Shown in pieces: positions 3,232 through 46,863 of a DNA stretch of 64,000 nt. Source of the stretch: an uncultured cyanobacterium (GTDB lineage Bacteria; Cyanobacteriota; Cyanobacteriia; Cyanobacteriales; Cyanobacteriaceae). The position numbers and the translations under genes were made by a program. The notes beneath the pieces are model-generated. The model was given only the letters and a program-made list of their open reading frames with translations, ran no database searches and was not told the DNA's origin. The stretch lies in the NCBI GenBank assembly GCA_963710605.1, contig CAVQBA010000001.1, forward strand, positions 224,001 to 288,000, in the 5' to 3' direction. The stretch's first letter is position 1, and each line of letters starts with the position of its first letter.

Positions 3232-3456
3232 TTAACCTACTTTTTCTGACAAAACGCTAGGTAAAGGTAGCTTTTCACCTGAGAGTCGATAATCCTCGAT
3301 TAATAATTCTAAAACCTCCATACCACGATTGACAGCCTCAGTATAAGTGTCACCATGAGTACGCCATTGTTGTCCTGGAAAATCAGGTAATCCCACCAAG
3401 TAACAATCATCAATATTAGACCATTGAATTACCATTTTATATTTATGATTAGTCAT
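3232..3456 (-). CDS. hicB: HicB-family antitoxin
   Basis: Y.M.I.WS..D.CY.V.LPDFPG...THGDTY.EA; overlaps the end of hicA. Confidence 0.85.
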   Translation of the reverse strand: MTNHKYKMVIQWSNIDDCYLVGLPDFPGQQWRTHGDTYTEAVNRGMEVLELLIEDYRLSGEKLPLPSVLSEKVG

Positions 3457-3661
3457 TTGTTTTTCTCTTTTTTACATCTTTAATTGCTTGAAAAACCTCT
3501 TTCTCTTGATAATCTCTAGCGTCGTTACCGTCTTTGCCTGAGATAGTTATTCGACCTAAATATAAAGGATGAAACCAGTTAGAGTGACTTCCTTTTCCTG
3601 TTCTTTGAGAAAAACCAGCTTTTTTAAGAATTTTTTTTAATTCTCGAATTTTCTTAGGCAT
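3449..3661 (-). CDS. hicA: HicA-family toxin (mRNA interferase)
   Basis: 70 aa, basic, GKGSH motif. Confidence 0.88.
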   Translation of the reverse strand: MPKKIRELKKILKKAGFSQRTGKGSHSNWFHPLYLGRITISGKDGNDARDYQEKEVFQAIKDVKKRKTND

Positions 3662-3834
3662 TAGTTAATTAATTTTTCGAGTTTTAATATATCATAAGTT
3701 TTATAATATTTTTTTCTACCCTTACAAAAACCAAATCTCATCTTGACCATCTAACCACTACAAATACAATATTACTTCTTCAATTGTCGCTGTAGCTATC
3801 GCTACTGTTTATAAAATACGCACGATCGTTTTAA

Positions 3835-3910
3835 TTAATCGATCGAGTGAGTCATACTCGTATTGAGTACGATGAGCTAACCCGTCAATAGTAGCGATAA
3901 TATTACCGAT
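3835..3910 (-). pseudogene. Isolated Rhs YD-repeat stub
   Basis: Manual translation IGNIIATIDGLAHRTQYEYDSLDRLIKTI. Confidence 0.7.
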
Positions 3911-4042
3911 AGGAGGGTGTCTGGTATTAATTAATGAGCTTGATGGTGCGTTCCAACCAATAAAATTAGCGAGAACGACAGTAATTTTACCGAACGTACC
4001 CTACAGATTTACTACAGATCAACGATCGCACTTGAGCGTACT

Positions 4043-4504
4043 TTATGTTAACTTAAATTCCTTTTTGAAATCTTTTATAGAGTTTTGAAAATCATTATAG
4101 ATAATTTCTTCTTCATTAAGAAATCTGCAATATTCTGATACAAATATTTTGACTCCATTCCAAATAGAATAGACAAAATCATTTTCTTTTAGTGTCAATA
4201 TTTCTACACTTTCGCTATCTTTCAAGATTAATTTATTTTCTTTTTCTCCAAAATTTTTGACGAAAAAAAGTTTGAAAGATGAATCTGCTCCCACAAAACA
4301 GTATGACTTTTTATTTTTATCTTTTAATAAGATTCTAATTCCATCTAATAGTTCCACGATAGAAATAAATATCATCATTGATTGACTACTATTTAGTTTT
4401 TTAGGAGGATATAATGTCTTTTTAGTCTCTATAATTATAAAACCTTGACTAAAACTATCAATATCAGATAAAGGTTCATTTAACTTGAAAATAAATTTTA
4501 TCAT
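4043..4504 (-). CDS. Putative immunity protein of Rhs module 4
   Basis: Small AT-rich ORF directly downstream of the toxin C-terminus; ATG at 4504. Confidence 0.65.
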   Translation of the reverse strand: MIKFIFKLNEPLSDIDSFSQGFIIIETKKTLYPPKKLNSSQSMMIFISIVELLDGIRILLKDKNKKSYCFVGADSSFKLFFVKNFGEKENKLILKDSESVEILTLKENDFVYSIWNGVKIFVSEYCRFLNEEEIIYNDFQNSIKDFKKEFKLT

Positions 4505-4514
4505 CAGTTTACTT

Positions 4515-5860
4515 TTACTCACTTCTAGGCGGAAATATAGTGACAACTTCTTCAGTTACCGTATCAACAATAACTCTTACTCGTTCTCTTTTGCCATTAA
4601 CTTTAATTCTATCTTCAAAAGTTTGTACGTTTCTTGAAGGATCAGAAATTCTAGTTCCTTCTTTAATAATTTTATTTGCTCCTTCTTGTAATTGATCTCT
4701 TGTCGTTCCAGGTGCGAAAAGATCTGCTGGTCGCTTTTGTTGGATGATCACCCGTAACATGACGAGCATCAATATGTATCCATCCTTTTTTTAAATTTCC
4801 GTCGAGTATTTTGGCTGTACCTCTCCAAGGTGGTTTTACAGAACTGTCAAAATATGGATTAGAAAAATCATCATTAGCAGGACAAGAATTTCCCGTATGA
4901 GTAATTGGTTCAACATTGGATTCAGTAGGAGAAGAAGGAGGATTTGTATCAATATCAGGTTTTGTCGTATGTCCTGTATTGTCAGAAAATTTGTTCTCTT
5001 CACGATCGGGAATACCTTCAGGGTTAGGAAAATGATTATCTGGAAGAGACTTAATGTTATTTCGCTCTCGATCGCGATTTAATTTTTGCTTTTGTTTTTC
5101 TATTTGGTAAATACTATAAAGAGCAAAGCCTGCTGGAAGTATTACATCTTTAATAATGATTGTTCCAAATATCGCTGCTTCGCCGAATGGATCGATCGCA
5201 TTAGTTGCATTATTACCAACATAACGATAAAGATTAGCATCACCACCAGCAAACCCTATGGTATCCTCAGAGATAAACCTTCCTACCGAGCTGTCATAAT
5301 AACGAGAGCGGTAATAATGTTGCCCGGTTTCCTCATCTAACTCCCTGCCCGTGTAACCATTACGGAAATCAATAGATGGATCAGTCTCAGAAGTTACCTC
5401 ACCGAAAGCATCATATGTAATGGAATTAATTACATCACCATTATGATCCAAAACATAACGAACCGAACCTAAATTATCAGCTAAAGCCCAATAAACGCTA
5501 CCATCTGCATTCTCTTGTGCAATTACTTGGTCAACTGTGACACCATGAAGGAATCTTTCCTTTAAATTACCCTCTCCATCAAAAACGAGTGCGATTTCAT
5601 CACTATCTAACACATATCTCTCTTCTAGATCGAGATTACCATCGCCATCGCTATCTACCGATTTAGCAATTCTTCTGTCATAAACATCGTATTGGTATTC
5701 AACAGTAGCCAGAACATTACCACTAACATCTTTAGTTACAACACCTACGAGTCGATTACGATAATCCCACTGATACTCAGTCACCTCACTAGTAGTATGG
5801 TTATTAGCATCCGTAAGCGAAATTAAATTATTGGCACTGTCATAGACAAAACGTTCCCAC
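4515..5860 (-). CDS. Orphan Rhs module 4 (core plus putative RNase C-terminus), +1 frameshift near 4733
   Basis: YTGRELD/GRFISED/IDPFG core; tip GWIHIDARHVTG joins ADLFAPG...VVTIFP after removing one base; YD stub in frame upstream of 5784. Confidence 0.8.
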
Positions 5861-5903
5861 CGAAAAAATTAGTATGAACGACAGTACTTTGTAAAGACGC
5901 ACC

Positions 5904-6419
5904 CTACAAGAGGGCGATCCCACGATTATTCTGCTCGTATTTCTTTAACAAAGCAATCAGGACCAAATATTTTTCTGTGATTCTTAAAGTATCTAGAAAA
6001 TCTTCTTCATTTAAATATTCAAAATAAATTTCTAAATTATTTTCTAGTTGTATTTTAATCGCAAATTCACTAGGATTATTATCAGAAGCATATTTTGATT
6101 TTAAAAAAAATATTTTTTTGATTATCCTACCAATTCTCGGTTTCCAAAAACTATTTTTTGTAAGATTACGATATTCATAACTATCTCCATATTTCTCCAT
6201 AAGACCTTTTTTAACGCCAATACTCTCAATTTCTAGTAAAGAGTAAAAGTTTAAAATATTACCATCGTCCAACATTATCTCTATCGGTCCGTCAGCAGTT
6301 TGTTCAAAATCATTTCGAACAAAATCATCTTTAAAAAGTTGACGATTTACTTGAATAATTTTACGACCTGAAAGACTTTGAAGAAGATCTAAATTGCAAG
6401 AAGGAATTCCTAAATTCAT
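5904..6419 (-). CDS. Putative immunity protein of Rhs module 3
   Basis: Starts 16 bp after the toxin gene end; low GC; no recognisable family. Confidence 0.65.
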   Translation of the reverse strand: MNLGIPSCNLDLLQSLSGRKIIQVNRQLFKDDFVRNDFEQTADGPIEIMLDDGNILNFYSLLEIESIGVKKGLMEKYGDSYEYRNLTKNSFWKPRIGRIIKKIFFLKSKYASDNNPSEFAIKIQLENNLEIYFEYLNEEDFLDTLRITEKYLVLIALLKKYEQNNRGIALL

Positions 6420-6434
6420 AATCTTTAAAAATAA

Positions 6435-9200
6435 CTATTGATTAATAAATGTATCAAATTGACTATCTATAATTCTAACTCCTCTTCTTGTTTCTGGATT
6501 AAAAATATCAACACGTTCTTGTCCATTTCGATTAGTTCCTCTTTGAATTATAGGATTCTCATTTGTGTCTCCTAATACTTCTCTAATAATTTGATTTGCT
6601 GAATCTTGGCTTTTACTAAAATCTTCACCTTGAAAAGCTGAATTTTTTGAAGGACTTCCATCTAATCTTTTTCTTATAGCTTGAAGGGCTCGTGAATCTT
6701 CTGAATTTGGACGTGATGGTCTCATAGAAGAATCAATTATATCATTAATATCGGATATACCAATAGTTCTACTAACAGTTTCATTCATTCTCACATCACA
6801 CATATTATGAACTAAAATAGCTAGTTCAGAAATATAATAAGTGTGATAATTTTCTACCTCAAAATTATAGACAGTTTCCTCGCCCTCACGCCAAGTAACA
6901 GATTCAATAGATAAGACTTTACCATCTTTAGTTAAGAGCTCATCACCTACTTGTAACTCATGAGCTAACTTCCAACCATAGTCTCTTATCCAGAAAGGAT
7001 GGGTTGAAGTACAGGTAATTTTTACCTCATTTACAATAATATCGCCGACTTTATCTACTTGTTTTTGAAATAATTGTTTGACAACAGAAATTTCACCTGA
7101 AAACTGCTCACTTCCAGTGTAAACTCGATCGCCTATTTTAATTTGTTCAATAGGAATAAAACCATATGGAGTAGCAATCAAAGTTCCAGCAACAAAACAC
7201 TCTATTTGACGAGCTAAACCATCTACCGCATCATCGATGTTACCATCAGCACCTTTTATAAAAGAATCTAATTGTTTAAAAAGCGGTTGAACAATTTCTC
7301 CTAAAGCACCACCTAGTCCACCGATTAAACCTTGTTGAAGAACGTTATCAGATAAATTACAACCTGTGAGTGCATTTCGACCAACTTGTAATCCTGCATC
7401 AATACCTCCACTAGCAAGACCATTGACAACAACTCTTTGTAGTAGAGAAGCAAATTTAACCGCCGCTTTAGCTGAAACAACACCACCAAGTGCACCACTT
7501 AAGGCACTCATGGCAACAGACATCCAATCGACTTTAGAAATATCGCCTTTATGTTGAATTAGTTGAATTGTTAAATCGACACCTGCACCAATACCAGCCT
7601 GTACCGCAAAATTAGCAAATTCACCAGTAGGATCGGTTGCATTAATCGAATTATTACCAACATAACGATAAAGATTAACATCGCCACCAGCGAAGCCAAT
7701 CGTATCCTCAGAAATAAACCTTCCTACCGAGCTATCATAATAACGAGAGCGATAATAATGTTGCCCTGTTTCTTCATCTAACTCTCTGCCCGTGTAACCA
7801 AAACGGAAATCAACAGATGGATCAGTCTCAGAAGTTACCTCACCGAAAACATCGTATATAATCTCATTAATTATATTTCCATCATTATCTAAAACATAAC
7901 GAACCGAACCTAGATTATCAGCCAAAGCCCAATAAACGCTACCATCCGCATTCTCTTGTGCAATTATTTGGTCAACTGTGACACCATGAAGGAATCTTTC
8001 TTTTAGATTACCCTCTCCATCAAAAACGAGTGCGATCTCATCACCATCCAATACATATCTCTCTTCTAAATTGGGATTACCATCACCATCGCTATCAACA
8101 GACTTAGCAATTCTTCTGTCGTAAACATCATATTGATACTCAACCGTAGCGAGAACATTACCACTAGCATCCTTAGTTACAACCCCTACCAGTCGATTGC
8201 GATAATCCCACTGATACTCAGTCACCTCACCTGTATCAATATCGGTACGATCGAGACGATTACCTTCATTGTCGTAGGTATAATTGTAAACACCATCAGA
8301 CAATAACTGATTATTATCACCTGTCACATAACCGCCGTTAGTGCGATTACCAGTACCGTCATAACCATAACTTTCATCATCCTGATAATTATAATCAGCA
8401 TTCGTTAATTGATTCGTGTCGTCATAATTATAAACAACAACACCATCAGGACTGGTAAGCTGCTCTATACGGTTAGCCTCATCATAAATCCAATTGTAAT
8501 TAGCTATAGTCCCAGTACTATTGTTATGAACTAAATCAATCAAACGACCAAAATCATCGTAGTCATAATCACTTTCTGCGACTAATTGCGTACCAGCTAG
8601 ATCGGAGAATCGATCGATCTCTTTTAACTGTGAAGCCTTATCATAAGTAAAATCAACCCGTTTATTAGTTACCCCATTACCCGATTGAGTAATACTCACA
8701 ATTCGATTTAATTCGTCTAATGTAAACTCTTCAATACCCGATACAACGCCCTCGATCGTATCAGTAACCGACAACATATTACCGACATTGTCATATTGAT
8801 AATTTAAGACAACATTAGGAACACCAACAGTACCTAAATTATCGATCGAAGTGAGTAAGTTTCTTTCGTCATAGCTGTACCCATAGCTGGAAAAGCTGTC
8901 AGACACGGATAAAAGACGACTACCTTTGTCGTAATCATAAATTATGAGATTTGAACCATCCTCCCATTCTTCTTGAGTAAGACGATTTAAACTATCATAG
9001 CTGTAATTAGTAGTGCGGTTATTTCGATCGGTCATCTCAATCAAATTACCCGCCCCATCGTATTCATAAGTACGAATGAAACCTAATTGGTTGGTATCAG
9101 TTAAAAGTCGATCGACACCATCGTAAGTATAAGTCGTCGTATTATCCTCACTATCAGTAAGACTTAAAAGATTACCAACCTCATCATATACATAGATAGT
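6435..9200 (-). CDS. Orphan Rhs module 3 with pretoxin HINT domain and C-terminal toxin
   Basis: YD repeats (frame continues upstream of 9044 to about 9200), DPTG, CFVAGTLI...VYNFEVENYHTYY....LVHN HINT, then a ~120 aa tip. Confidence 0.88.
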   Translation of the reverse strand, partial: TIYVYDEVGNLLSLTDSEDNTTTYTYDGVDRLLTDTNQLGFIRTYEYDGAGNLIEMTDRNNRTTNYSYDSLNRLTQEEWEDGSNLIIYDYDKGSRLLSVSDSFSSYGYSYDERNLLTSIDNLGTVGVPNVVLNYQYDNVGNMLSVTDTIEGVVSGIEEFTLDELNRIVSITQSGNGVTNKRVDFTYDKASQLKEIDRFSDLAGTQLVAESDYDYDDFGRLIDLVHNNSTGTIANYNWIYDEANRIEQLTSPDGVVVYNYDDTNQLTNADYNYQDDESYGYDGTGNRTNGGYVTGDNNQLLSDGVYNYTYDNEGNRLDRTDIDTGEVTEYQWDYRNRLVGVVTKDASGNVLATVEYQYDVYDRRIAKSVDSDGDGNPNLEERYVLDGDEIALVFDGEGNLKERFLHGVTVDQIIAQENADGSVYWALADNLGSVRYVLDNDGNIINEIIYDVFGEVTSETDPSVDFRFGYTGRELDEETGQHYYRSRYYDSSVGRFISEDTIGFAGGDVNLYRYVGNNSINATDPTGEFANFAVQAGIGAGVDLTIQLIQHKGDISKVDWMSVAMSALSGALGGVVSAKAAVKFASLLQRVVVNGLASGGIDAGLQVGRNALTGCNLSDNVLQQGLIGGLGGALGEIVQPLFKQLDSFIKGADGNIDDAVDGLARQIECFVAGTLIATPYGFIPIEQIKIGDRVYTGSEQFSGEISVVKQLFQKQVDKVGDIIVNEVKITCTSTHPFWIRDYGWKLAHELQVGDELLTKDGKVLSIESVTWREGEETVYNFEVENYHTYYISELAILVHNMCDVRMNETVSRTIGISDINDIIDSSMRPSRPNSEDSRALQAIRKRLDGSPSKNSAFQGEDFSKSQDSANQIIREVLGDTNENPIIQRGTNRNGQERVDIFNPETRRGVRIIDSQFDTFINQ

Positions 9201-9214
9201 AAAAATATACTAAT

Positions 9215-10213
9215 TTAATCAGCCAAATTATTAATATGTTCTCTCATTTTCTTTATATCTTTTCTATCCACTTGATTATGATGAATTTCAAAATCTTTCA
9301 ATTTTTTTAACTGATAAATTGAATCAGGGATATTTTTTATTTGATTATGATCGAGCCATAAACATCGAAGATTTATGTTTTTAGCAAAATTAGCAAATAC
9401 ATTCTTTATTTGATTATGACTTAATTGTAATATTTCTAAATTACTTAGCTCTAAAAATATATTATTAATTTGGGTTATTTGATTATTACATAAATTTAAC
9501 TTTTTAAGTTTTTTTAATTTGGATATATGATTGGGTATTTCGCTAATCTGATTCTCATATGAATAGAAAGACTCAAGAAGATTTAAAGAAAAAACTATTT
9601 CAGGTATTTGAGTAAATAAATTACGACTTAAATTAAAGTATATTATTTGATTATCATATTTAGATTTTTTTAATTCAATATCCCTTATTTTATTACCATC
9701 TAAATTTAGAGAGTTTAATTTATTAAGGTTAAAAAGATAAAAAGGTACATTGACTATTTCATTGTAACTAAAATCTAAGATTTCTATTTGTGATAAATTT
9801 GTTATTGAATTAGGAATAAATTCGATATAATTTCCCCCTAATTTCAAAGATGTTAAATTAGTAATTTCAGTGAGACATTTAGAAAAACAATTAATTTTGT
9901 TTGAAAATAAATTTAAATCAAATAAATTTTCTAGCATAGATATAGAATCTGCTATTTTCTCAATTTGATTTCGTTCCAAAATTAGTTGTTGTAGATTAGT
10001 TAATTTATAAATATTTTCAGGAATTTCTGTAATATTATTATTAGTTAAATCTAAATATTCTAAATGTTTTAATTCAAAAACTTCATCAGGAATGTAACTT
10101 AACTTTTCATCATCACCATACCAGTTCTCACGAGAGAAATCTAAAACATCAGATTTTTCTTGTTGGCATTGTTTTAATTTTTCTTGAAAAGAATCAGGTA
10201 TCTTATTCATCAT
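9215..10213 (-). CDS. Leucine-rich repeat protein in the immunity position of Rhs module 2
   Basis: Repeated 23-aa LxxLxLxxNxIxxIP units; starts 38 bp after the module 2 end. Confidence 0.88.
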   Translation of the reverse strand: MMNKIPDSFQEKLKQCQQEKSDVLDFSRENWYGDDEKLSYIPDEVFELKHLEYLDLTNNNITEIPENIYKLTNLQQLILERNQIEKIADSISMLENLFDLNLFSNKINCFSKCLTEITNLTSLKLGGNYIEFIPNSITNLSQIEILDFSYNEIVNVPFYLFNLNKLNSLNLDGNKIRDIELKKSKYDNQIIYFNLSRNLFTQIPEIVFSLNLLESFYSYENQISEIPNHISKLKKLKKLNLCNNQITQINNIFLELSNLEILQLSHNQIKNVFANFAKNINLRCLWLDHNQIKNIPDSIYQLKKLKDFEIHHNQVDRKDIKKMREHINNLAD

Positions 10214-10250
10214 GGAAATATTTTGAGAGAATTAATTTAATTGATAACTA

Positions 10251-11852
10251 TTAAAAAATAGGATTTCTAAAAGGATTTAACCATCTAGGAATTGGAGAGA
10301 TAGGAATTGGAGGGATAGTAGGAATGTCAAATGTAGGATTTGGTTGTGGTAGTGGTGGTAGTGGTGGTAGTGGTTGTTGTTGCGGACTAATCATTGGTAC
10401 CGCAGGTATTGCGATGCAAAAATTATTAAATTCGTCTGAGTCTTTCCAACGAAATTTTAGTTCGGTGACATTTTTATATCCTCTCGTATGATGTCTATAT
10501 TCTATTCTTCTGTTAAGTTTTGTTGGCTGTAAATCAATCGTTGGTAGAGGACCTGATTTTCCAACAGATATCAAACTGGCTTGTCCACCTTCTCTTTCTC
10601 CTTGTCTTAGACTTGCGAAACTACCATTAACTTTTAATTTATAAGTTAAACTCCAAGCTGAAACAGGGAAATTTGGATTATTACGATCTGTTGTTAATCG
10701 ATTAGTGGCTATATTTTCTCGTGTTGTTATGCTTTTAAAAGCAATTAAAGCTCTGCTATATGCCTGTGCATAATTTTTATATACCGTTTTACTTTGATAG
10801 CCACTTGGTATTTTGCCTATAGTATTAGGAGAAGGTTCAAAAGTATTTAAAAGTGTTGTTAACTCTGCTGATGCTAACCCAAAAGGATCGATCGCATTAA
10901 CGGGATTGTTATCAACATACCCATATAAATTATAAGTCCCACTATCAAAAGAAATAGGATCGACACTGATAAACCTGCCAGTCTTACCATTATAATATCT
11001 GGCTCTGTAATAGTATAAATCTATCTCCTCATCCCATTCACGTCCAGTAAAGCGATAACGACTATCAACAGACGCATCAGTTTCCGATACCACATTGCCA
11101 TAAGAATCATAAGTAAGATGATTGACCACATCCCCAGTGTTATCCACTAAATCACGAATCGTACCTAAATGGTCAGTTAAAAGCCAAGTTATATTACCAT
11201 TGCTATCCTCTTGAGCTAAAACTTGGTCAATACCTGCACCATGAAGATAACGCATATCCAACTCCACACCGCTACCATCATCGACAAAATCAAGAATTAC
11301 ATCCTCCCTGTCGTAAACAAAATAAGTCGCAATACCATCAACCACTTTTGATAACCTTTGCCCAAACATATCGTAACTAAACTCAACAGTTTGTGACACA
11401 TTATTACTACTATCAAAGTCAGTTACTGCCACCAAGCGATTGAGATAATCCCATTCAAATAGCCTGACCTCACCTGTAGCAATGGTAGTTTGAGAAATTA
11501 GATTACCCTCATCATCATAATCATAGTTATATACTCCATCAGAGAGTAACTCATTATTAACTCCTGTGTCATAGCCTGTTATAGTACGATTACCATTATC
11601 ATCGTAGGAATAAGTTTCATCATCATTATCAATATCGCTGTGAGTAGCGTTTAATAATTGATTACAATCGTCATAAGTAAAACTAGAAGTACCATCAACA
11701 TCGATAAGACTTAAAAGATTACCAACTGCATCGTAGGTATAAGTCGTTGTGAAATTTTCACTATCAGTTTGAGTTATTAGACGATTAATCTTATCATAGG
11801 AATAAGTGGTAAGATTACCTAGCCCATCAATCATTGTAATAATCTTACCGAT
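10251..11852 (-). CDS. Orphan Rhs module 2 with unknown C-terminal toxin and Pro-rich tail
   Basis: Core nearly identical to module 1 (about 10885-11704 vs 12835-13655); diverges after IDPFG. Confidence 0.85.
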   Translation of the reverse strand: MGKIITMIDGLGNLTTYSYDKINRLITQTDSENFTTTYTYDAVGNLLSLIDVDGTSSFTYDDCNQLLNATHSDIDNDDETYSYDDNGNRTITGYDTGVNNELLSDGVYNYDYDDEGNLISQTTIATGEVRLFEWDYLNRLVAVTDFDSSNNVSQTVEFSYDMFGQRLSKVVDGIATYFVYDREDVILDFVDDGSGVELDMRYLHGAGIDQVLAQEDSNGNITWLLTDHLGTIRDLVDNTGDVVNHLTYDSYGNVVSETDASVDSRYRFTGREWDEEIDLYYYRARYYNGKTGRFISVDPISFDSGTYNLYGYVDNNPVNAIDPFGLASAELTTLLNTFEPSPNTIGKIPSGYQSKTVYKNYAQAYSRALIAFKSITTRENIATNRLTTDRNNPNFPVSAWSLTYKLKVNGSFASLRQGEREGGQASLISVGKSGPLPTIDLQPTKLNRRIEYRHHTRGYKNVTELKFRWKDSDEFNNFCIAIPAVPMISPQQQPLPPLPPLPQPNPTFDIPTIPPIPISPIPRWLNPFRNPIF

Positions 11853-11881
11853 TACACCTAACTATAAAAGAGACAATCATA

Positions 11882-12256
11882 TTAAAGACATGTAAGATAG
11901 TATTGAGCTCTAATAGTAGATAAAGTATCATTTTCATCTACAGTCCAATGGATTATCCAATCATCTCTACATATAAAGCCTGATATAGAAAAAGATGCTA
12001 CTTTTTCAGAAGTTACATTTGACGTGTCAAGAGAAAATCCTTGTTTAGATAAACTTTCAACTATTACAGTATTATTTATTCCTATTGGAAATGCATCATT
12101 GACCCTTTCTTTAAATTCTGTTTGAGCTACTAAATAATTTGAAGGAAGATTACGTGCCATTGAAGGAGTTTTTTGATAATTCCATAACCTGATTACAATT
12201 ATCAGAATAATAAATCCAAATATAATCATTAAAAATATTTTGATATGTTTTATCAT
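11882..12256 (-). CDS. Putative membrane-anchored immunity protein of Rhs module 1
   Basis: N-terminal hydrophobic helix, two Cys, directly after module 1. Confidence 0.65.
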   Translation of the reverse strand: MIKHIKIFLMIIFGFIILIIVIRLWNYQKTPSMARNLPSNYLVAQTEFKERVNDAFPIGINNTVIVESLSKQGFSLDTSNVTSEKVASFSISGFICRDDWIIHWTVDENDTLSTIRAQYYLTCL

Positions 12257-12307
12257 TTTTTATATTTTTGTAAATTTTGAAGTAGTTTATAAAGAGTAGA
12301 TTTGAGT

Positions 12308-15300
12308 TTAAGGATAAATACTAGTTCCTATATTTTTTGATTTTACACCTGTAAAAATATCTATTTCCCAGGCGGGAGGATCAATACCAACTTTAGGAAA
12401 AGGACGTAATAACTGTGGTAAAGCCAATTCTAAAATAGTAAATGCTGCCGAATTACTATTTTTTAAAAAAGGGTTATAATTAATGTCTGAATTGGTGATT
12501 ATTTGAGAATATGCTTTAGTTTTAGAGAGTATAGATGGTGCATATTTAAGGCAATCTTCTTCATAAACAATTTGTCTTTGAGCTATTTGTGAAGATTTAC
12601 TATAAGGTATATCCTCTTGCATAATTACTTTTCCAAATCCAAATGAACCACCAGCACTACCACTACTAGAAAGCGTATTACTTACTTGAAGAGAACCTCC
12701 TTGTTCTGGTTCACCAATAAATCCTCTACTTCCTAACATATCTGTAATAAGAATTTCAGCGTGGTGTTTAAGACCGCCAGACAAATTAATATATACTAGT
12801 TCTACTTTAAAATGTTGTTTATTTTGTCCAGAAGGATCGATCGCATTAACAGGATTATTATCAACATACCCATACAAATTATAAGTACCACTATCAAAAG
12901 AAATAGGATCGACACTAATAAACCTTCCAGTCTCCCCATTATAATATCTGGCTCGGTAGTAATAGAGTTCTATTTCTTCATCCCACTCTCTTCCAGTAAA
13001 GCGATAACGACTGTCAACAGTAGCATTAGTTTCTGATACCACATTACCATAGGAGTCATAAGTTAAATGATTGACCACATCACCGCTATTATCTACCAAA
13101 TCACGAATCGTACCTAAATGGTCAGTTAAAAACCAAGTGACATTACCATCACTATCCTCTTGTGCCAAAACTTCATCAATACCCGCACCATGAAGATAAC
13201 GCATATCTAACTCCACACCGCTACCATCATCGACAAAATCAAGAATTACATCCTCCCTATCATATACAAAATAAGTCGCAACCCCATCAACTACCTTTGA
13301 TAAACGTTGACCAAACATATCGTAACTAAATTCAACAGTTTGAATAACATCATTATCACTATCAAAGTCAGTTACTGCCACCAAGCGATCGAGATAATCC
13401 CATTCAAATAACCTAACCTCACCTGTAGCAATAGTAGTTTGAGAAATTAAATTACCTTCATTATCATAATCATAGTTATATACTCCATCAGAGAGTAATT
13501 CATTATTAACTCCTGTGTCATAGTCAGTTAAAGTACGATTACCATTATCATCATAGGAATAAATTTCATCGTCATTATCAATATCACTATGAGTAGCGTT
13601 TAACAGTTGGTCACGGGTATCATAAGCAAAAGTATTCGTGCTGTCAACATCGATAATTTGAGTAATACGACTACCCGCATCATAAGTTAAATCGTAGAAA
13701 GCGACATCATTAATACCATTATTATGAATTAAATTGGTTAGACGATTAGCACCGTCATAATCATAACTACTACTGACAAGCAAATTTGTATCAGTTAAAT
13801 CAGAATAACGATCGATCCTCTCATACTGACCAACACCGTTATAATCAAAATCTACTCGTTTATCTTCTACCCCATTACCCGATTGAGTCAAAGAGGTAAG
13901 ACGGTTAAGACGATCGTAATCATAAGTGGTAATACCGCTATCAATACCATTAATAGAATCAGAAACAGAAATGATATTACCTTGCTCGTCATAATTATAA
14001 GTTAAAACAACGTTAGGAACATCTGGAGTATTTGCATTATCAACAGTTTCTATACGCCCCATCACGTCGTAAGTATAATTATAAGTAGCGTCAGGATTAG
14101 TAATAAAGATTAACTCATTACCTGCATTATAAGAGGAAGTCGTCGAGTAAATAGGGAGGGAGTTATCATCGAGCCAAATCTCTTCTATTTGGCGGTTTAA
14201 ATTGTCGTAGCTAAAGGCTCTAACTCGATCGTTACGGTCAATAGTACGAGTTAGATTATTAGCCTCATCATAGGCAAAAGTACGAGACAAACTAAGCTCA
14301 TTAGTTTCAGTGATGACACGATTACGAGCATCGTAAGTATAACTAGTTTGATTATTAACAGAGTCAGTTACCGATAAAACATTACCAACATCATCATAGG
14401 TAGTAGTGGTAATAATATCATCACCACCATCGATGACATTACGCATCAGGATTTGTCGGTTTCGAGCATCATACTCGTATTCAGTACGATTACCGTTCCC
14501 ATCGATCGTCGCAGTGACATTACCTACTTTGTCGTATTCATAACGAGTAATATTACCTTCACCATCAGTAACTTTAATTTGTCGTCCTAAATCGTCATAT
14601 TCAAATTCAGTACGATTATCGTTTCCGTCGATAAGAGCAATTAACTGATTAGCTCGATCGTATTCATACTTAGTTTCGTTGCCTTCAGCATCAATTTCTC
14701 TGATTAATCGATCGCGATAATCATAGATATTAGTAGTTAAATTTCCAGTTTGATCAGTAGTAGAAACTAAATTATTGTTATTATTATCGTAATGAGCTTC
14801 GGTTGTGTTACCGTCAGGTTGAATAATTTCTACCAATCGATTACGACTATCGTAAATATAACGAGTTTCTCGGTTAAGAGGATCGATTGTAGAAACTAGA
14901 TTACCATTACCATCATAAGTATTAATCGTAACAGGATTGCTTAACGGACCTGCACCATCAGGATCGGCTTCGATGACTTTAATTAAACGATCTTGAGTAT
15001 CATAAACATATTCAGTGACATTACCTAACCCATCGGTCATGATAATTAGATTACCATTATCATCATAATCCATCATTTCTACTGCTTCATCTGATGCACT
15101 ACCTACAGCATATCTAGTTTCAATTAATCGATTAGCATTATCGTATTCGTATTCAGTACGATTATTGTTTTCATCGATATATACTATTTGATTACCAGCA
15201 GTATCGTATTCGTATTTAACGATCGCCTCCTCACTGGTACCTACGGCATAGATAATTTCAATTAAATTACCTGTATCGAGATGATAATTATAATCAGTAA

Positions 15301-16490
15301 TCTGACCGTTAGCATCAGTCATTTTATCGATTAACCCAGCATTCGTATAGGCATAGCGAGTCATAACGTCATCAGTTTCGCCATTACTAGGAGCATCTAA
15401 TTCCCCGACAACTCTGGTAGTAGAGACTACGTTCCCATTATCCGAATCAATCTCATAAAGAGTAACTCGACCAATTTCATCAGTATAGCTAGTTAGTTGA
15501 TTGAAAACAGGCTCATAAGTATAAAAACGTTCGTTAAACTCACCATTTTGTTGATTAATTAAGACAGAAATATTATAGTCGTTGGGGTTAACGGTTATAA
15601 TATCAAAGTCTCCATCGGTATTAACATCGACTAATAAAAAGTCTGCAAAAGAGTTACCTACCTCAAAATGATTCAAAGAGTTGAAACTTCCTTCACCATC
15701 TCCTAACCAAACAATAATAGAATTATTAGCAATATCTGGTACAGTTGGATTGCCTCCTAGATAATTAGTGACTAAATCTAGTCGTCCATCTCCATTCAAA
15801 TCAGCAAAAGCGACATTTATTGGTCTTGAGCCTTCTGGTAGAGAATAAGTAGAAAGCCGAGTAAAAGTCCCATTTTCATTCCCTTTTATTACGACTATCT
15901 GATTTTGAGAAGTACTAACGATCGCCATTTCAAGTTTACCATCTCCATTAATATCTTTCAAAGCTAATGAATCGACATCACTGGTAAAACTAAAATTACT
16001 TTGAAAAGACAGAGTACCATCTCCATTACCATTTAGTATCGAAATACTATCAGAAAAATAGTTGGTAGTTATTACGTCTTGGTTTCCATCATCATCAATG
16101 TCTTCTATGGTTATAGAAATTACTTCATCATCAAGTTCTTGATTGATTGGTTGTTCAAAAGTACCATCTCCATTACCTAAAGAGACACCGAGGAAGTAAT
16201 CTTCTTCTTCATACCCACCACCTTCAATTCGATAACCACTGATTAAGTCTAAATTTCCATCAAGATCTATATCAGCAATTGAGATAGTATCAATCCAAAT
16301 TGAATCGATTACATAATTATCGAATTCAACAAAAGTACTATCACCATAACTAGCCGTTACACTATTACCACTCTCGGTCATTAAGACTAAAGGAGGAGAT
16401 AATGGATTAATAGTCTGTGTAGGTAAATATAAACCTTTTTGTACCTCTACTGGTTGAATATTGATGGTTGTGCCATCTTTACGTACTGAT
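12308..16490 (-). CDS. 5'-truncated large Rhs/YD protein with FG-GAP/VCBS repeats and C-terminal toxin (module 1)
   Basis: DxNGDGxxD repeats, long YD array, FTGREWD, IDPSG; frame stays open and Rhs-like upstream of ATG 16381 until it meets cvrA. Confidence 0.9.
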
Positions 16491-16785
16491 TGAGATAGTG
16501 CCTGTAGCAGTGGTAATTGCTATGTTTTTAATCTTTGTTGCTCGTCCTTTAAGTGTCTTTATTTGTACGATTTTTAATCAATACAATCGGTCAGAAAAGT
16601 TATTTATTTCTTGGGTTGGTTTAAGAGGTTCTGTGCCTATTATTTTGGCGATCGCTCCTATTACAGCCCAAATCGAAAATGCAACGGTTATTTTTAATGT
16701 CGTATTTTTTATCGTTTTGATTTCAGTCTCAGTTCAAGGTTTGACTTTAGTACCGATCGCCAAATACTTAAAATTAGATCAGTAA
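16486..16785 (+). pseudogene. cvrA: C-terminal fragment of CvrA/NhaP2-type K+/H+ antiporter
   Basis: FLIFVARPLSV, EKLFISWVGLRGSVPIILA, FNVVFFIVLISVSVQGLTL. Confidence 0.88.
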
Positions 16786-16869: not shown

Positions 16870-17397
16870 TTAATCGTCTTCTTTGACTGAATACTCAAAA
16901 GGAAAGTCATTTTTTAATTGAATTAATTCGTCTCTGTGAGCTTGAATGGTAATAACAGTATTCTCAGTTGATTCTTGCTCATAATTATCCAAACGAAAAG
17001 CTACTTGTTCGACTCTTGATGAGCCTTGCCAATAAAAATAGCCAGCTAAAGGTGCTAAAACCAAAAGAATTAAAAATGCCGTTGATGAAGTAGAAAAGAG
17101 CATTGATAATACTAAAGCCAAACAAAACAAACCACAACTAGCTAAAAAACTTAATAAGACAGCTAAAAAAATACTCGGTGCAACTAATCCTTCTAAAGTT
17201 ACTTTATTTGTTTCGGTATCGATCGCTTTTACTTGATAAGATCGATCGATAAAATAACTACGTAAATAACTCAAAATATTATCAGAAGTATCTACGCAAT
17301 TGAGAGTAACAATTTCAGTTCTATCCTTAGTGCTTGCTCTAATAAAAAAGAATAAACCGATCGTTAATAGGATAGTCAAGATAAAAGTAGATGTCAT
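16870..17397 (-). CDS. ccb1: Cofactor assembly of complex C subunit B (CCB1, DUF3529)
   Basis: GLFFFIRAS.KDRT, EG.V.PS.FLA, AHRDEL motifs. Confidence 0.8.
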   Translation of the reverse strand: MTSTFILTILLTIGLFFFIRASTKDRTEIVTLNCVDTSDNILSYLRSYFIDRSYQVKAIDTETNKVTLEGLVAPSIFLAVLLSFLASCGLFCLALVLSMLFSTSSTAFLILLVLAPLAGYFYWQGSSRVEQVAFRLDNYEQESTENTVITIQAHRDELIQLKNDFPFEYSVKEDD

Positions 17398-23007: not shown

Positions 23008-24184
23008 TTAATTACCAATTATCTCTTTTAATCCTTTGACTAAACGATCGATTCCTTCTTTGGCGGTATCAGGATTTAACGCACCATATGCGACTCTTAA
23101 ATAACAACCTTTTTCCATACCAAACGTATTACCCGGTATCACCGCAACCCGATAATCGGTAATCAGTTTTTTAGCTAATTCAAAACTATCGTAATCACCG
23201 TTTACTTTCAAGAAAAAATAAAATGCCCCTTCAGGCACGCCAAAAGTAACTAAATCGCTAATTTTATTTAATTGGCTTTGGAATAATTGACGCAAAGAAT
23301 CGATCGTTTTTAGGTGTTGTTGACAATAACTTTTACCTGCTTCTAACGCCCCTAATGCACCATATTGAGAGATTACGGGCGGACAGATCAAAATGGTATC
23401 TTGAACTTTTTTCACCGACATCAAAAGGTGTTTTGGTATCACCATGTAACCAATCCGCCAACTAGCAAAACCATAAGCTTTAGAAAGACTAAATAAAGAA
23501 ATGGTGTGATTATGACTAGCAACAATTGAGCAAGGAGAAAAATGAGTTGTTTGCCCGTAAGTAAAATATTCGTAGGCTTCATCACTAATATGATAAAGAT
23601 TATGTTCAAGGGCAAGACGATTAATTTCTCTTAATGTCGATTCAGGATAAACTACTCCTGTGGGGTTATTAGGAGAGATAGTAACGATCGCTTTTGTTTT
23701 ACTGGTAATAGCTTGTGCGATCGCATCTGGACGTAATTGATATTGCTCATCTGTGGCTACTAATACAGGATGACAACCCGCCATTTTAATCGCCATTTCG
23801 TGGTTGAAAGTAATAAGGAGTTTGTAATATAATCTCGTCTTCTGGTTGAGTGATGGCTAAAACAGTATTCATAAAAGCCATATTGCTTCCTGCGGTAACT
23901 ACAACACAACTATCGGGGTGGAGTTGATAATTATTATCTTGTTGTAATTTAACTTCAATCGCTTCTAATAAAGGAGTAATACCTTGCACTGATTTGTATT
24001 TATGACTATGCGCTTGTTGCCAAAATTCACTAACTCGATCGAGTGCTTCAGTAGGAGGATTATAATACACTATTCCTTGCCCTAAAGAAATAGTACCGGG
24101 ATTGTTACTAATTAATTCACCAATCACAGGTATCAAGGGTGATTGGATTGTTTGCATACGGTTAGAGTGAAGATTGGTAGTCAT
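23008..24184 (-). CDS. PLP-dependent class I/II aminotransferase (frameshift near 23807)
   Basis: SPNNPTG, SDEAY, SLSKAYG..WRIG; removing one T restores PYYFNHEMA. Confidence 0.88.
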
Positions 24185-43598: not shown

Positions 43599-45402
43599 TT
43601 AGAAGTTAGAATGATTATTTAAAGCCGTAGTCATTTTATCAATCACCTCTGCCACCGCAATCGCTCCTAAATCACCATTGGCACGAGTGCGGATACTTAA
43701 AGTATTAGCTTCTACCTCATTTGCTCCAACTACAGCCATAATGGGAATTTTTTGTTTTTCGGCGTTACGTATCATTTTACCCAAACGCTCGCCACTAGTA
43801 TCCACTTCAGCACGAATACCCAAAGATAACATCTTCTGACAAACTTCTTTGGCATAACCGATAAATTCATCATTAACTGCAATCAAACGTATTTGGATAG
43901 GGGCTAACCATAGAGGAAAGTCTCCGGCATATTCTTCAATTAAAATACCAATCAGACGTTCTAAAGAGCCAAAAGGTGCACGGTGAATCATAATCGGACG
44001 TTGACGGCTACCATCGGTGGCGGTATATTCCAGATCAAAACGATCGGGTAAATTATAATCAACTTGTACTGTACCTAATTGCCATTCTCTTTCTAACGCA
44101 TCTTGAAAGATAAAATCTAATTTAGCGACCATAAAAAGCCGCTTCACCTGGTGCTTCAAAATGTTCCATATCCAGATGTTGTACTGCTTTACGAATCGCA
44201 TTTTGAGCTTTATCCCAGACTTCATCACTACCAATATATTTATCAGAATTTGGATCTCGGAAACTCAAACGAGCTTTAAAATTAGAAAGCTGTAAACTTT
44301 TGAATACAGATAAAATTAAATCAACCACATCAAAAAATTCCGACTCTAATTGTTCAGGTGTGACAAATAGATGGGAATCATCAACAGTAAAACCACGGAC
44401 TCTAGTTAAGCCTCCTAACTCCCCTGACTGTTCGTAACGATAGACAGTACCAAACTCGGCTAAACGCATTGGTAAGTCACGATAAGACCGTAATTCGCTT
44501 TTATAAATTTGAGTATGAAAAGGGCAATTCATCGGTTTTAAGACAAATCCCATTTCTTTTTCGGCATCTTCGGTGCTTTCTGCCATCATCGGGAACATAT
44601 CTTCTTTATAGTTTTGCCAATGTCCTGAGATTTTGAATAAATCGACTCGACCAATATGAGGGCTAACAACTGGTAGATAACCTCTTTTGATTTGTTCTTG
44701 TTGCAGGTAATTTTCTAACGTCGATCGAATAATTGTACCTTTAGGAGTCCATAATGGTAAACCCGGACCGACGGGATCTGAGAAAATAAATAAACCTAAC
44801 TCTTTACCTAATTTGCGGTGATCTCTTTTTTTGGCTTCTTCTTTTCGACGTTTATATTCAGCTAACTGCTCAGGTGTTTCCCATGCTGTACCATATACTC
44901 GTTGTAATTGCTGATTATTTGCATCTCCTCGCCAATATGCACCTGCGATACTTTCTAAATCGATCGCTTTAGGGTTAAGATCAGCAGTAGTTTCTAAATG
45001 AGGTCCGGCACATAAATCCCACCATTGATCCGCTAGATGATAAATTGTAATCGTATCATCAGTAATACCGTCTAAAATTTCTAATTTGTAGGGTTCGTTA
45101 ATCTCTTTAATTCTAGTTTGAGCTTCTTCTCGACTAACAACTTCTCTGACTACAGGTAGTTTTTTATTGATGATTTTAATCATCTGTTTTTTGATTGTCT
45201 TTAAGTCTTTTTCGGTCAAAGATTCGGGTAAATCAAAGTCGTAGTAAAAGCCATTTTCTGTCCAAGGACCGATCGTTACTTGAGCATTAGGATATAATTT
45301 TTGTACCGCCATTGCCATCACGTGAGAAGCTGTATGACGAATTTTTTGTAAGGATTCTGATTCGCTGGTAGATGGTAATTTAATCGTTTCTAAACTAGAC
45401 AT
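43599..45402 (-). CDS. thrS: Threonine--tRNA ligase (frameshift at 44126)
   Basis: DLCAGPH, RDHRKLG, KPMNCP, MIHRAPFGS; removing one base restores AFYGPKLD. Confidence 0.95.
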
Positions 45403-45799: not shown

Positions 45800-46863
45800 A
45801 TGTTAACTCTGATATTAACAGTTGCAATCGTTCTCCTTGGTTCTGCTTTTTGTTCTCTAACCGAAACGGTATTGTTGTCAGTACCCGAAATCAAGGTTAA
45901 GCAATGGGTTCAAGCAAAAAAGAAAGGCTCAAATACCTTGTTACAGATTAAGAAAAAAATGAGTCGCCCGATCGCCACAATTGTAATTTTAATAATATAT
46001 TTAACATTGTTGGCAGTGTTGTTATCGGTACATTAACAACTCAAGTTTTGGGTAGCAAGTGGTTAGGAGCATTTTCAGCATTATTTACTTTTCTAATTAT
46101 TATTTTCGCTGAAATTATTCCTAAAACTTTAGGGCAAAAAAACGCTGATTTTTTATCTTTACTATTGGCTGTACCTGTCAAGACATTATCTTTTCTCTTC
46201 ACACCGATCGTGTTAATGATGGAAATTTTAACTGAGCCTTTAACTAAAGGAAAAGTTTTACCTACTACCAACGAAATGGAAATTAAGTTTTTAACTAATA
46301 TTGGTAGTAATGAAGGCGTGATTGAAGCTGACGAAGCCGAAATGATCAATCGTGTTTTTCATCTTAATGATTTATGTGCGCTTGATATTATGACACCGAG
46401 AATTATTGTTACTTATCTCAAAGGAGATTTAACTTTAGGTGAGTGTCAAGATTTTATTATTAATTCTGAGCATAGTCGTATTTTGATTGTGGAAGAATCG
46501 ATCGATGAAGTTATCGGTATTGGTTTTAAAACTGAATTATTAATCGCCATCATTCAAGGTAAAGGTAACAGTAAATTAGCTGATTTAGCTCAAAACGTTA
46601 ATTTTGTCCCCGGTAGTGTAAGAGCAGATCATCTTTTAAAAAACTTCCAAGAATTAAGACAACATTTAGTCGTTGTTATTGATGAATATGGTGGTGTTTC
46701 CGGGGTTGTTTCTCTAGAAGATGTCTTAGAAGTATTGACAGGAGAAATCGTTGATGAAACCGATCGAGCAGTTAGTATGAGAGAGATTGCTAGAAAAAGA
46801 AGAGAGCGTCTTTTACGCTCTAAAGGTATCAATGATTCTTCTGGTTTTTATCGGGCATCGTGA
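45800..46863 (+). CDS. CNNM/CBS (hemolysin/CorC-like) protein (frameshift near 45991)
   Basis: SAFCS..E, AEIIPK, MTPR, DEYGG..G.VSLED; adding one A restores ILNNIFNIVG. Confidence 0.88.

Follow-up and report, generated by a model that had tools for sequence, protein, structure and literature searches.

Is a row of headless Rhs toxin modules a working store of weapons, or the relic of a weapon that has been lost? The question is raised by positions 3833-16490, where all features lie on the minus strand, of a 64-kb stretch of cyanobacterial DNA (hereafter the window; G000:C1:224001-288000). The analysed assembly, G000, comprises 3.93 Mb in 7 contigs at 33.4% guanine plus cytosine (GC). In Rhs proteins a conserved core closes in a DPxG motif and variable sequence lies beyond it. 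Orphan Rhs arrays are textbook knowledge for Proteobacteria; in Enterobacteria, orphan rhs-CT/rhsI modules lying behind the main rhs genes were reportedly described by Jackson et al. in 2009. The initial annotation had read the locus as a reservoir of toxin tips and immunity genes serving two full-length parent genes elsewhere. The analysis argues for a different answer. The array is probably a disarmed relic of an Rhs polymorphic-toxin locus, not a working weapon store, and the locus is possibly kept for its immunity genes.

The array contains four modules, whose cores belong to two lineages (A and B), with an open reading frame (ORF) behind each tip and a fifth remnant:

12308-16381, minus strand: module 1 (rhs1), ORF of 1357 aa with FG-GAP followed by RHS repeats; DPSG at 12827-12838; tip at 12308-12826 (172 aa)
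11882-12256, minus strand: imm1, 124 aa, putative immunity protein for tip 1
10251-11834, minus strand: module 2, ORF of 527 aa in a frame open to 11858; lineage A core at 10878-11858; DPFG at 10878-10889; tip at 10251-10877 (208 aa)
9215-10213, minus strand: leucine-rich repeat (LRR) gene, 332 aa, in the immunity-gene position behind tip 2
6435-9044, minus strand: module 3, ORF of 869 aa in a frame open to 9206; lineage B core at 7623-9206; DPTG at 7623-7634; tip at 6435-7622 (395 aa)
5904-6419, minus strand: imm3, 171 aa, putative immunity protein for tip 3
4515-5865, minus strand: module 4, with an ORF of 370 aa (4672-5784) in a frame open to 5865; lineage B core at 5182-5865; DPFG at 5182-5193
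Within module 4, minus strand: ORF of 85 aa in another frame, overlapping the 370-aa RHS ORF
4043-4546, minus strand: imm4, 167 aa, putative immunity protein for tip 4
3833-3935, minus strand: fifth Rhs remnant, a single YD repeat (…IATIDGLAHRTQYEYDSLDRLIKT…) without core end and without tip

The initial annotation had described four cores that end in DPxG and are followed by unrelated tips and downstream ORFs, and this description was confirmed (DPSG, DPFG, DPTG and DPFG). The Pfam family PF05593 (RHS_repeat) was matched by rhs1 (E 1.8e-82, 12 stretches), module 2 (1.1e-21), module 3 (1.1e-21) and module 4 (3.1e-06), and rhs1 additionally matched FG-GAP_3 (E 3.3e-22). The remnant at 3833-3935 gave no Pfam score; it was recognised in translation and shares 70% DNA identity with the YD repeats of rhs1 (repeat family D3). 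No mutual similarity was detected among the four tips and the downstream ORFs, the best cross-match having an E value of 0.014. Cores 1 and 2 (lineage A) share 88.2% DNA identity over 829 nt (10879-11707 versus 12828-13656), with exact words of up to 50 nt. Their shared lineage is upheld; "near-identical", the term first applied to them, is too strong for cores with 82-83% protein identity. Cores 3 and 4 (lineage B) have a common core, as had been proposed, with 90.0% DNA identity over 601 nt (5189-5789 versus 7630-8230) and exact words of up to 34 nt. The motifs FTGREWD (modules 1 and 2) and YTGRELD and DSDGDG (modules 3 and 4), by which the two types had been told apart, were found in the translations. 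In both pairs the DNA homology breaks off inside the DPxG codons. Between the lineages, protein identity is 44-47% and the longest common exact DNA word is 12 nt. The open frames of the orphan modules begin approximately 8-40 nt past the stop of the preceding ORF and align from rhs1 residues ~656, ~870 and ~970. The GC content is 0.36-0.40 in the cores, 0.31-0.355 in the tips and 0.22-0.28 in the immunity ORFs, in a genome of 0.334.

The largest module had been suspected to be truncated at its 5' end and to have no obvious Shine-Dalgarno sequence at ATG 16381, and comparison with its closest relative bore this out. Residues 13-680 of rhs1 are 97% identical (648/668) to residues 1044-1711 of P0002, a 1712-aa database protein that is itself a partial ORF. 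The stop-to-stop frame of rhs1 extends 46 codons upstream of ATG 16381, and coding sequence derived from the parent continues in frame to ~16489. A stretch of 51 residues in this upstream frame, ending at rhs1 residue 15, is identical to P0002 residues 827-877 at all 51 positions, and the identity to P0002 then ends abruptly at ~16490. ATG 16381 is an internal methionine codon of the parent, and no Shine-Dalgarno-like sequence precedes it. A measure of what is missing was provided by P0122, a 3887-aa protein of Cyanobacterium aponinum UTEX 3222 named "peroxidase family protein", of which residues 2814-3868 are 66% identical to rhs1 residues 287-1343, tip included. Relative to P0122, roughly the first 2,500 residues are missing from the window copy; ~1,390 codons of the parent's 3' end remain, roughly the last third. 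No N-terminal trafficking or secretion domain was found in rhs1, which starts inside its parent, and the head is absent from G000. Two further features mark the damaged end of the gene:

16336-16344, minus strand: site of an in-frame deletion of 169 aa; P0002 residues 878-1046 are missing from rhs1
16495-16785, plus strand: remaining 3' part of a Na+/H+ exchanger gene, arranged head to head with rhs1 and matching positions 285-374 of the 375 in Pfam Na_H_Exchanger

At the smaller deletion the window reads ...SYGDS and then TFVEF, and GDS borders both ends of the deleted stretch; P0005 and P0008 retain the 169-aa segment. As for the larger junction, rhs1 and the exchanger fragment stand head to head, so that one deletion across both 5' parts and the intergenic region would account for it. 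G000 contains four complete exchanger paralogues and this single fragment, and no orphan N-terminal exchanger piece was found elsewhere in the assembly, which favours a deletion and disfavours an inversion. An inversion was rejected, since neither missing head, that of the Rhs gene or that of the exchanger, occurs elsewhere in the assembly. The neighbourhood of ccb1, a histidine kinase gene and the exchanger gene is not shared by relatives, and the ancestral locus cannot be reconstructed from them.

The nature of the missing head could be read from relatives. The first residues of P0002 already fall within an animal haem peroxidase domain (E 3.3e-62), which is followed by ~700 residues and FG-GAP repeats and then by the Rhs shell. 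A head ORF of 1569 aa in G001, a genome of the same genus, encodes Ig-like domains and a whole An_peroxidase domain (E 1.2e-138); its sequence matches the beginning of P0002 at 71% identity. Long relatives retrieved at E ≤ 0.001 numbered 245 (2,997-5,000 aa); of the 120 that were listed, about 51 by hand count carry the peroxidase and RHS Pfam families together. The full-length proteins (3,000-4,900 aa) are filed in databases under "peroxidase family protein", "FG-GAP-like repeat-containing protein" or "RHS repeat-associated core domain protein". Giants that combine haem peroxidase, FG-GAP and Rhs (3,000-4,900 aa) are common in cyanobacteria and also occur in some Planctomycetes. While lineage A has a relative with 97% identity, the best long relative of lineage B is 65% identical (among 120 listed of 4,631 at E ≤ 0.001). 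A match of P0002 to TcdB_toxin_midN remained below the Pfam cut-off (22.0 versus 24.8 bits). These comparisons show an ancestor gene of ~3,500-3,900 codons encoding Ig domains, a haem peroxidase, an FG-GAP propeller, an Rhs/YD shell, DPxG and a toxin tip. A giant surface-type parent had been anticipated from the window, correctly in view of the G001 head with its Ig and peroxidase domains and of relatives of 3,000-4,900 aa. Full-text searches brought up no paper that treats Rhs arrays of cyanobacteria or fusions of peroxidase and Rhs.

A reservoir would need a full-length partner, and none was found in G000. RHS repeats occur at three loci only (the window, C5:264-270 kb and C6:864-867 kb), none of which is at a contig end. 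PF03098 (An_peroxidase) had no matches in G000 and three in G001, the positive control, and tblastn with P0002 and the G001 head gave only weak repeat or Ig matches in G000. The only intact giant Rhs gene (G000:C6:858523-868110) encodes 3195 aa with Ig domains and RHS repeats, a DPSG end and a hydrophobic tip of ~80 aa; at the protein level it is 30-41% identical to the window cores. A genome search with the cores had been proposed as the way to find full-length parents. Within this assembly none came to light: in blastn, the window array and the C5 and C6 loci showed no similarity in DNA, and the longest exact word that the array shares with them is 18 nt. A fragment of a lineage B core at C4:50970-51206 (236 nt, 82% identical, 32 nt as its longest exact match to the window array) contains an internal stop and is debris. 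No deliverable full-length main gene with core homology to the orphans was identified: rhs1 is 88% identical to module 2 in DNA yet beheaded, and lineage B has no partner in G000 other than the C4 debris. With no peroxidase head and no other core of usable DNA homology in this assembly, the proposed service to two full-length parents is not supported. No secretion-machinery genes, including those of a type VI secretion system (T6SS), were found among the window ORFs scanned, in agreement with the earlier statement that the window has no T6SS or other delivery genes. As there is no trafficking head, no start signal and no homologous full-length gene, none of the four tips would be deliverable.

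Some observations were made at these other loci. On C6, an ORF of 737 aa with Ig domains lies 97 nt upstream of the intact-looking 3195-aa gene and may belong to the same gene, which has no peroxidase domain. At C5:264030-270290, two headless Rhs fragments of ~580 codons are interleaved with three GUN4-like ORFs and an ORF with tetratricopeptide repeats; the GUN4-like proteins may be immunity proteins. In the vicinity of the C4 debris are a pentapeptide-repeat gene and two genes of HicB-like type.

How such an array could have arisen is suggested by the divergence of its cores. Synonymous divergence (dS) is 0.59 between cores 1 and 2 and 0.42 between cores 3 and 4, with ratios of nonsynonymous to synonymous divergence (dN/dS) of 0.20 and 0.12, respectively. 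The large dS and low dN/dS imply that the paired cores diverged as working genes in separate lineages and were then brought together; on the same values, local duplicates that drifted apart were rejected. G001 has an A core followed by a B core, the same order as in the window, with other tips. Further modules of this sister species lie on G001:C156 and G001:C107. One of them, with a lineage A core, has a tip with an HPGSRSNGC motif and is followed by a 382-aa repeat lipoprotein-like ORF; the motif resembles that of YkuD L,D-transpeptidases. Another has a lineage B core that carries, as judged by eye, a tip-2-like domain, which tblastn with window tip 2 did not reach at E 1e-3; an exchange of tips across the two lineages is thus conceivable. 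A complete genome of the same order holds, at G035:C1:3502041-3520444, a tandem pair of copies of this giant gene family that are broken into fragments, some of them with internal stops, and decay of the giant genes appears to recur.

These observations can be arranged into a sequence of events. The ancestral giant toxin gene would have been transcribed divergently from the Na+/H+ exchanger gene. Cassettes of tip and immunity gene arriving successively from diverged strains would have displaced the older tips downstream, as in the classic Rhs displacement model, leaving orphan modules of two lineages (A upstream, B downstream), each packed behind the previous immunity gene. A single deletion may then have taken the promoter region that the two genes shared, together with two-thirds of the toxin gene and three-quarters of the exchanger gene, in each case from the 5' end; the resulting structure is observed, and that it arose in one event is inferred. 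A second, in-frame deletion would have removed the 169 aa around the propeller. The immunity ORFs could plausibly still confer a residual benefit against relatives that fire these toxins. The displacement model for Rhs loci fits the observed history (PMC3967940, PMC3482391). Signs of decay comprise the 169-aa deletion, the missing partner of tip 2, the YD debris at 3833-3935 and the C4 debris with its stop. Neither the truncation by several kilobases nor the loss of 169 aa belongs to the small-indel class of assembly errors.

The tips and their downstream ORFs were compared with relatives, immunity ORFs in 40 relatives and order-wide counts in 401 genomes. Tips 1-4, imm1, imm3 and imm4 had no sequence match in Pfam, NCBIfam or PDB apart from a PT-HINT domain in tip 3. 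Tip 1 is rare, with 15 matches in 1.84 billion representatives, and in most matches of at least 240 aa it is matched C-terminally; a homologue is found on the intact 3887-aa P0122 and on P0144. A pattern search of genome contigs with tip 1 gave 68 matches and no relative. When the alignment profile of the tip 1 family was compared with PDB, only its Rhs-core columns were matched (by solved Tc, teneurin and Rhs chains). Atlas offered DUF3750 (0.92) and TseH-like (0.91), which are unconfirmed leads only. The imm1 gene starts 51 nt past the rhs1 stop and encodes an N-terminal hydrophobic helix; no convincing homologue was found among the 40 relatives. Behind two orphan tip 1 homologues in G093, the next ORF encodes a 100-aa membrane protein with three helices that is unrelated to imm1. 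Both this neighbour and the imm1 helix are consistent with tip 1 being an envelope-acting toxin.

Tip 2 belongs to a family found in 6 genomes of the order. In all four tip-2-like loci examined, from three other genomes, a conserved protein of ~200 aa is encoded downstream (44-59% identical among themselves). No trace of this usual partner was found in G000, where the LRR gene stands in its place (LRR_8, E 2.5e-34). The claim that the downstream ORFs are cognate must consequently be divided: it is contradicted for tip 2 and the LRR gene, and it is supported for tip 4 and imm4 by the recurrence of this pairing in G037. No other part of the region is as rich in AT as the LRR gene (21.7% GC), whose GC skew is moreover opposite to that of its neighbours on the same strand; this suggests that the LRR gene was acquired separately. 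The nearest relatives of its product elsewhere reach at most 41% identity, and the homologue examined in G001 (38% over residues 5-170) is not beside an Rhs gene. An Imm-LRR class of immunity proteins has precedent (PMC3482391), so that the LRR gene might conceivably still serve as the immunity gene of tip 2.

Tip 3 consists of a Gly-rich hydrophobic stretch, a PT-HINT domain (about 6804-7181) and an end domain of ~125 aa. PF07591 was matched over 136 of 137 profile positions (E 2.4e-18, and 4.9e-18 in another scan), from CFVAG… to …VHNMC, so that the domain has the N-terminal Cys and the C-terminal HN and lies between the carrier and the final toxin domain. The end domain occurs in 2 genomes of the order, and the EndoU-like hit of Atlas (0.88) is an unconfirmed lead under the reliability line. 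imm3 starts 16 nt past the stop of tip 3, and none of the 40 relatives has a homologue. Tip 4 is split over two frames (4672-5181 and 4515-4772), both of which align end to end with the intact C-terminus of P0155 (55% and 58% identity); the frame changes near 4738-4754, beside a run of A. The single imm4 homologue in the 40 relatives, in G037 (34% identity), is encoded directly downstream of a tip-4-like toxin end.

Some neighbouring elements remain to be described. A junction element of 58 nt lies on the minus strand right behind imm3 (5852-5908) and right behind imm4 (3949-4005); the copies are 79% identical, and no further ones were found in the genome or in the compared loci. The hairpin common to both (GTCGTTC…GGAACG) is weak (z -1.9 and -0.9). 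The element may mark the boundary of a cassette or act as a terminator. A HicA/HicB toxin-antitoxin pair, at 3232-3661 on the minus strand, follows immediately on the last Rhs remnant, its HicB match falling below the Pfam cut-off (25 versus 27 bits); paralogues are present on C7, C4 and C6. HicAB was rejected as a member of the array, as the paralogues elsewhere are not beside Rhs genes and the HicB-like genes by the C4 debris are not the closest paralogues.

Several observations weigh against the view of a disarmed relic. Long reading frames run without interruption through three of the four modules (1403, 536 and 924 codons) in an assembly prone to broken genes, which fits a very recent loss as well as it fits continued use. 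The minus strand between ccb1 (16870-17397) and rhs1 yielded no terminator-like site, and in view of this, read-through transcription and translation from ATG 16381 are conceivable. A parent could formally lie in unassembled DNA, given a marker-gene completeness of 84.9%. Both the single-deletion scenario and the sequence in which the events are placed are themselves inferred. The frameshift in tip 4 may be a sequencing error comparable to that in thrS. Within the window, the single-copy thrS, an aminotransferase gene and a CNNM/CBS gene (43599-45402, 23008-24184 and 45800-46860, respectively) are each split by a frameshift into two overlapping frames, and the tip 4 frameshift is for this reason not firm evidence of decay. 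The split genes reflect either indel errors of the assembly or general erosion of the genome; indel errors would also account for a completeness of 84.9% despite only 7 contigs.

Among the alternatives, internal use survives best, and we still regard it as unlikely. The headless modules would be expressed from internal promoters and behave like toxin-antitoxin systems in growth control or abortive infection, by analogy with a main and orphan rhs pair of Salmonella that has internal promoters and type II toxin-antitoxin behaviour (PMC7043789). The three intact frames would suit such a role, as would the immunity ORFs that start 16-51 nt past the toxin stops or overlap the toxin frame and the recurrence of the tip 4/imm4 pair in G037. 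Promoter-like sites are, however, not more frequent than in shuffled sequence (74 versus a mean of 69), PADLOC gave no matches for the 11 proteins submitted, and tip 2 is without its usual partner.

A working archive, in which silent spares recombine with one or two full-length parents elsewhere and change the deployed toxin, appears less probable still. Each orphan retains 200-530 core codons as a recombination handle in a toxin-then-immunity layout, activation of orphans by recombination with the main rhs gene is established in Salmonella (PMC3967940), and the assembly is incomplete by its markers. The missing parent speaks against it: peroxidase heads are absent, RHS repeats are confined to three loci, exact matches to the C5 and C6 loci do not exceed 18 nt, and the C6 giant is a distant relative of the window cores. 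The low completeness, moreover, stems at least partly from genes broken by frameshifts and not from missing DNA alone. Within each lineage the two cores could still recombine and exchange tips, onto a headless body only. About as improbable is an assembly artefact in which an intact gene exists and the ~16490 junction, perhaps with the 169-aa gap, is a mis-join or collapse: the giant gene is internally repetitive and the window has its frameshifted genes, yet neither missing head is found anywhere in the 7 contigs, the junction carries no repeat able to cause a collapse, and small indels cannot yield a loss of several kilobases between unrelated genes (the length being estimated from the ~3,887-aa relative).

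The disarmed relic therefore remains the preferred reading, and it can be set beside known systems. Like the orphan rhs-CT/rhsI modules of Enterobacteria (Salmonella, E. coli and Dickeya; PMC3967940), the window modules are core fragments without start or export signals downstream of a larger rhs gene, each with a distinct tip past the core end, an adjacent immunity ORF, and a homology break and a step in base composition at the boundary. Unlike in those arrays as there described, the "main" gene of the window is headless and has no full-length partner in the assembly, two core lineages with 44-47% identity are mixed, and the parent is a peroxidase/FG-GAP giant instead of an Rhs protein linked to PAAR and a T6SS. 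The locus also resembles the polymorphic toxin loci of Zhang et al. 2012 (PMC3482391) in its cassette pairs 3' of the toxin gene and its PT-HINT domain, and an Imm-LRR class is described there. In the accessible text of that survey, Cyanobacteria are among the phyla with RHS-linked toxin domains and the median is approximately one active toxin per three cassettes; the window locus differs in having zero active toxins with four cassettes. The words "peroxidase" and "FG-GAP" are absent from the same accessible text. The order of peroxidase, FG-GAP and Rhs in P0002 and G001 is that of the giant cyanobacterial peroxidase/FG-GAP/Rhs entries, proteins known as database annotations only. In architecture only, the likeness extends to the TcB-TcC cocoons of Tc toxins and to teneurin YD shells, which share the YD shell, the core end, an enclosed C-terminal toxin and an upstream propeller. 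The window locus differs from Tc toxins in that no TcA-like partner was seen for it.

A further-reaching proposal is offered tentatively, at low confidence. The strain may be disarmed but shielded, its immunity block guarding it against relatives in which the same tips remain in use, such as tip 1 on the intact P0122 of Cyanobacterium aponinum, and the weapon concerned may be an undescribed, apparently T6SS-independent class of self-contained Ig/haem peroxidase/FG-GAP/Rhs cocoons (3,000-4,900 aa) that is widespread in cyanobacteria. Contact-dependent killing is not a trait for which cyanobacteria are known. An array of orphan Rhs modules is usually taken as an ammunition store; here the launcher is gone, and the tips and immunity genes are left. 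This is the outcome to expect where immunity pays by itself or where the giant genes are frequently lost. Before an Rhs array is labelled a reservoir, the genome must be checked for a compatible full-length gene. The more interesting object lies outside the window, in the family of intact giant parents, candidate weapons in conflicts between strains of mats and blooms.

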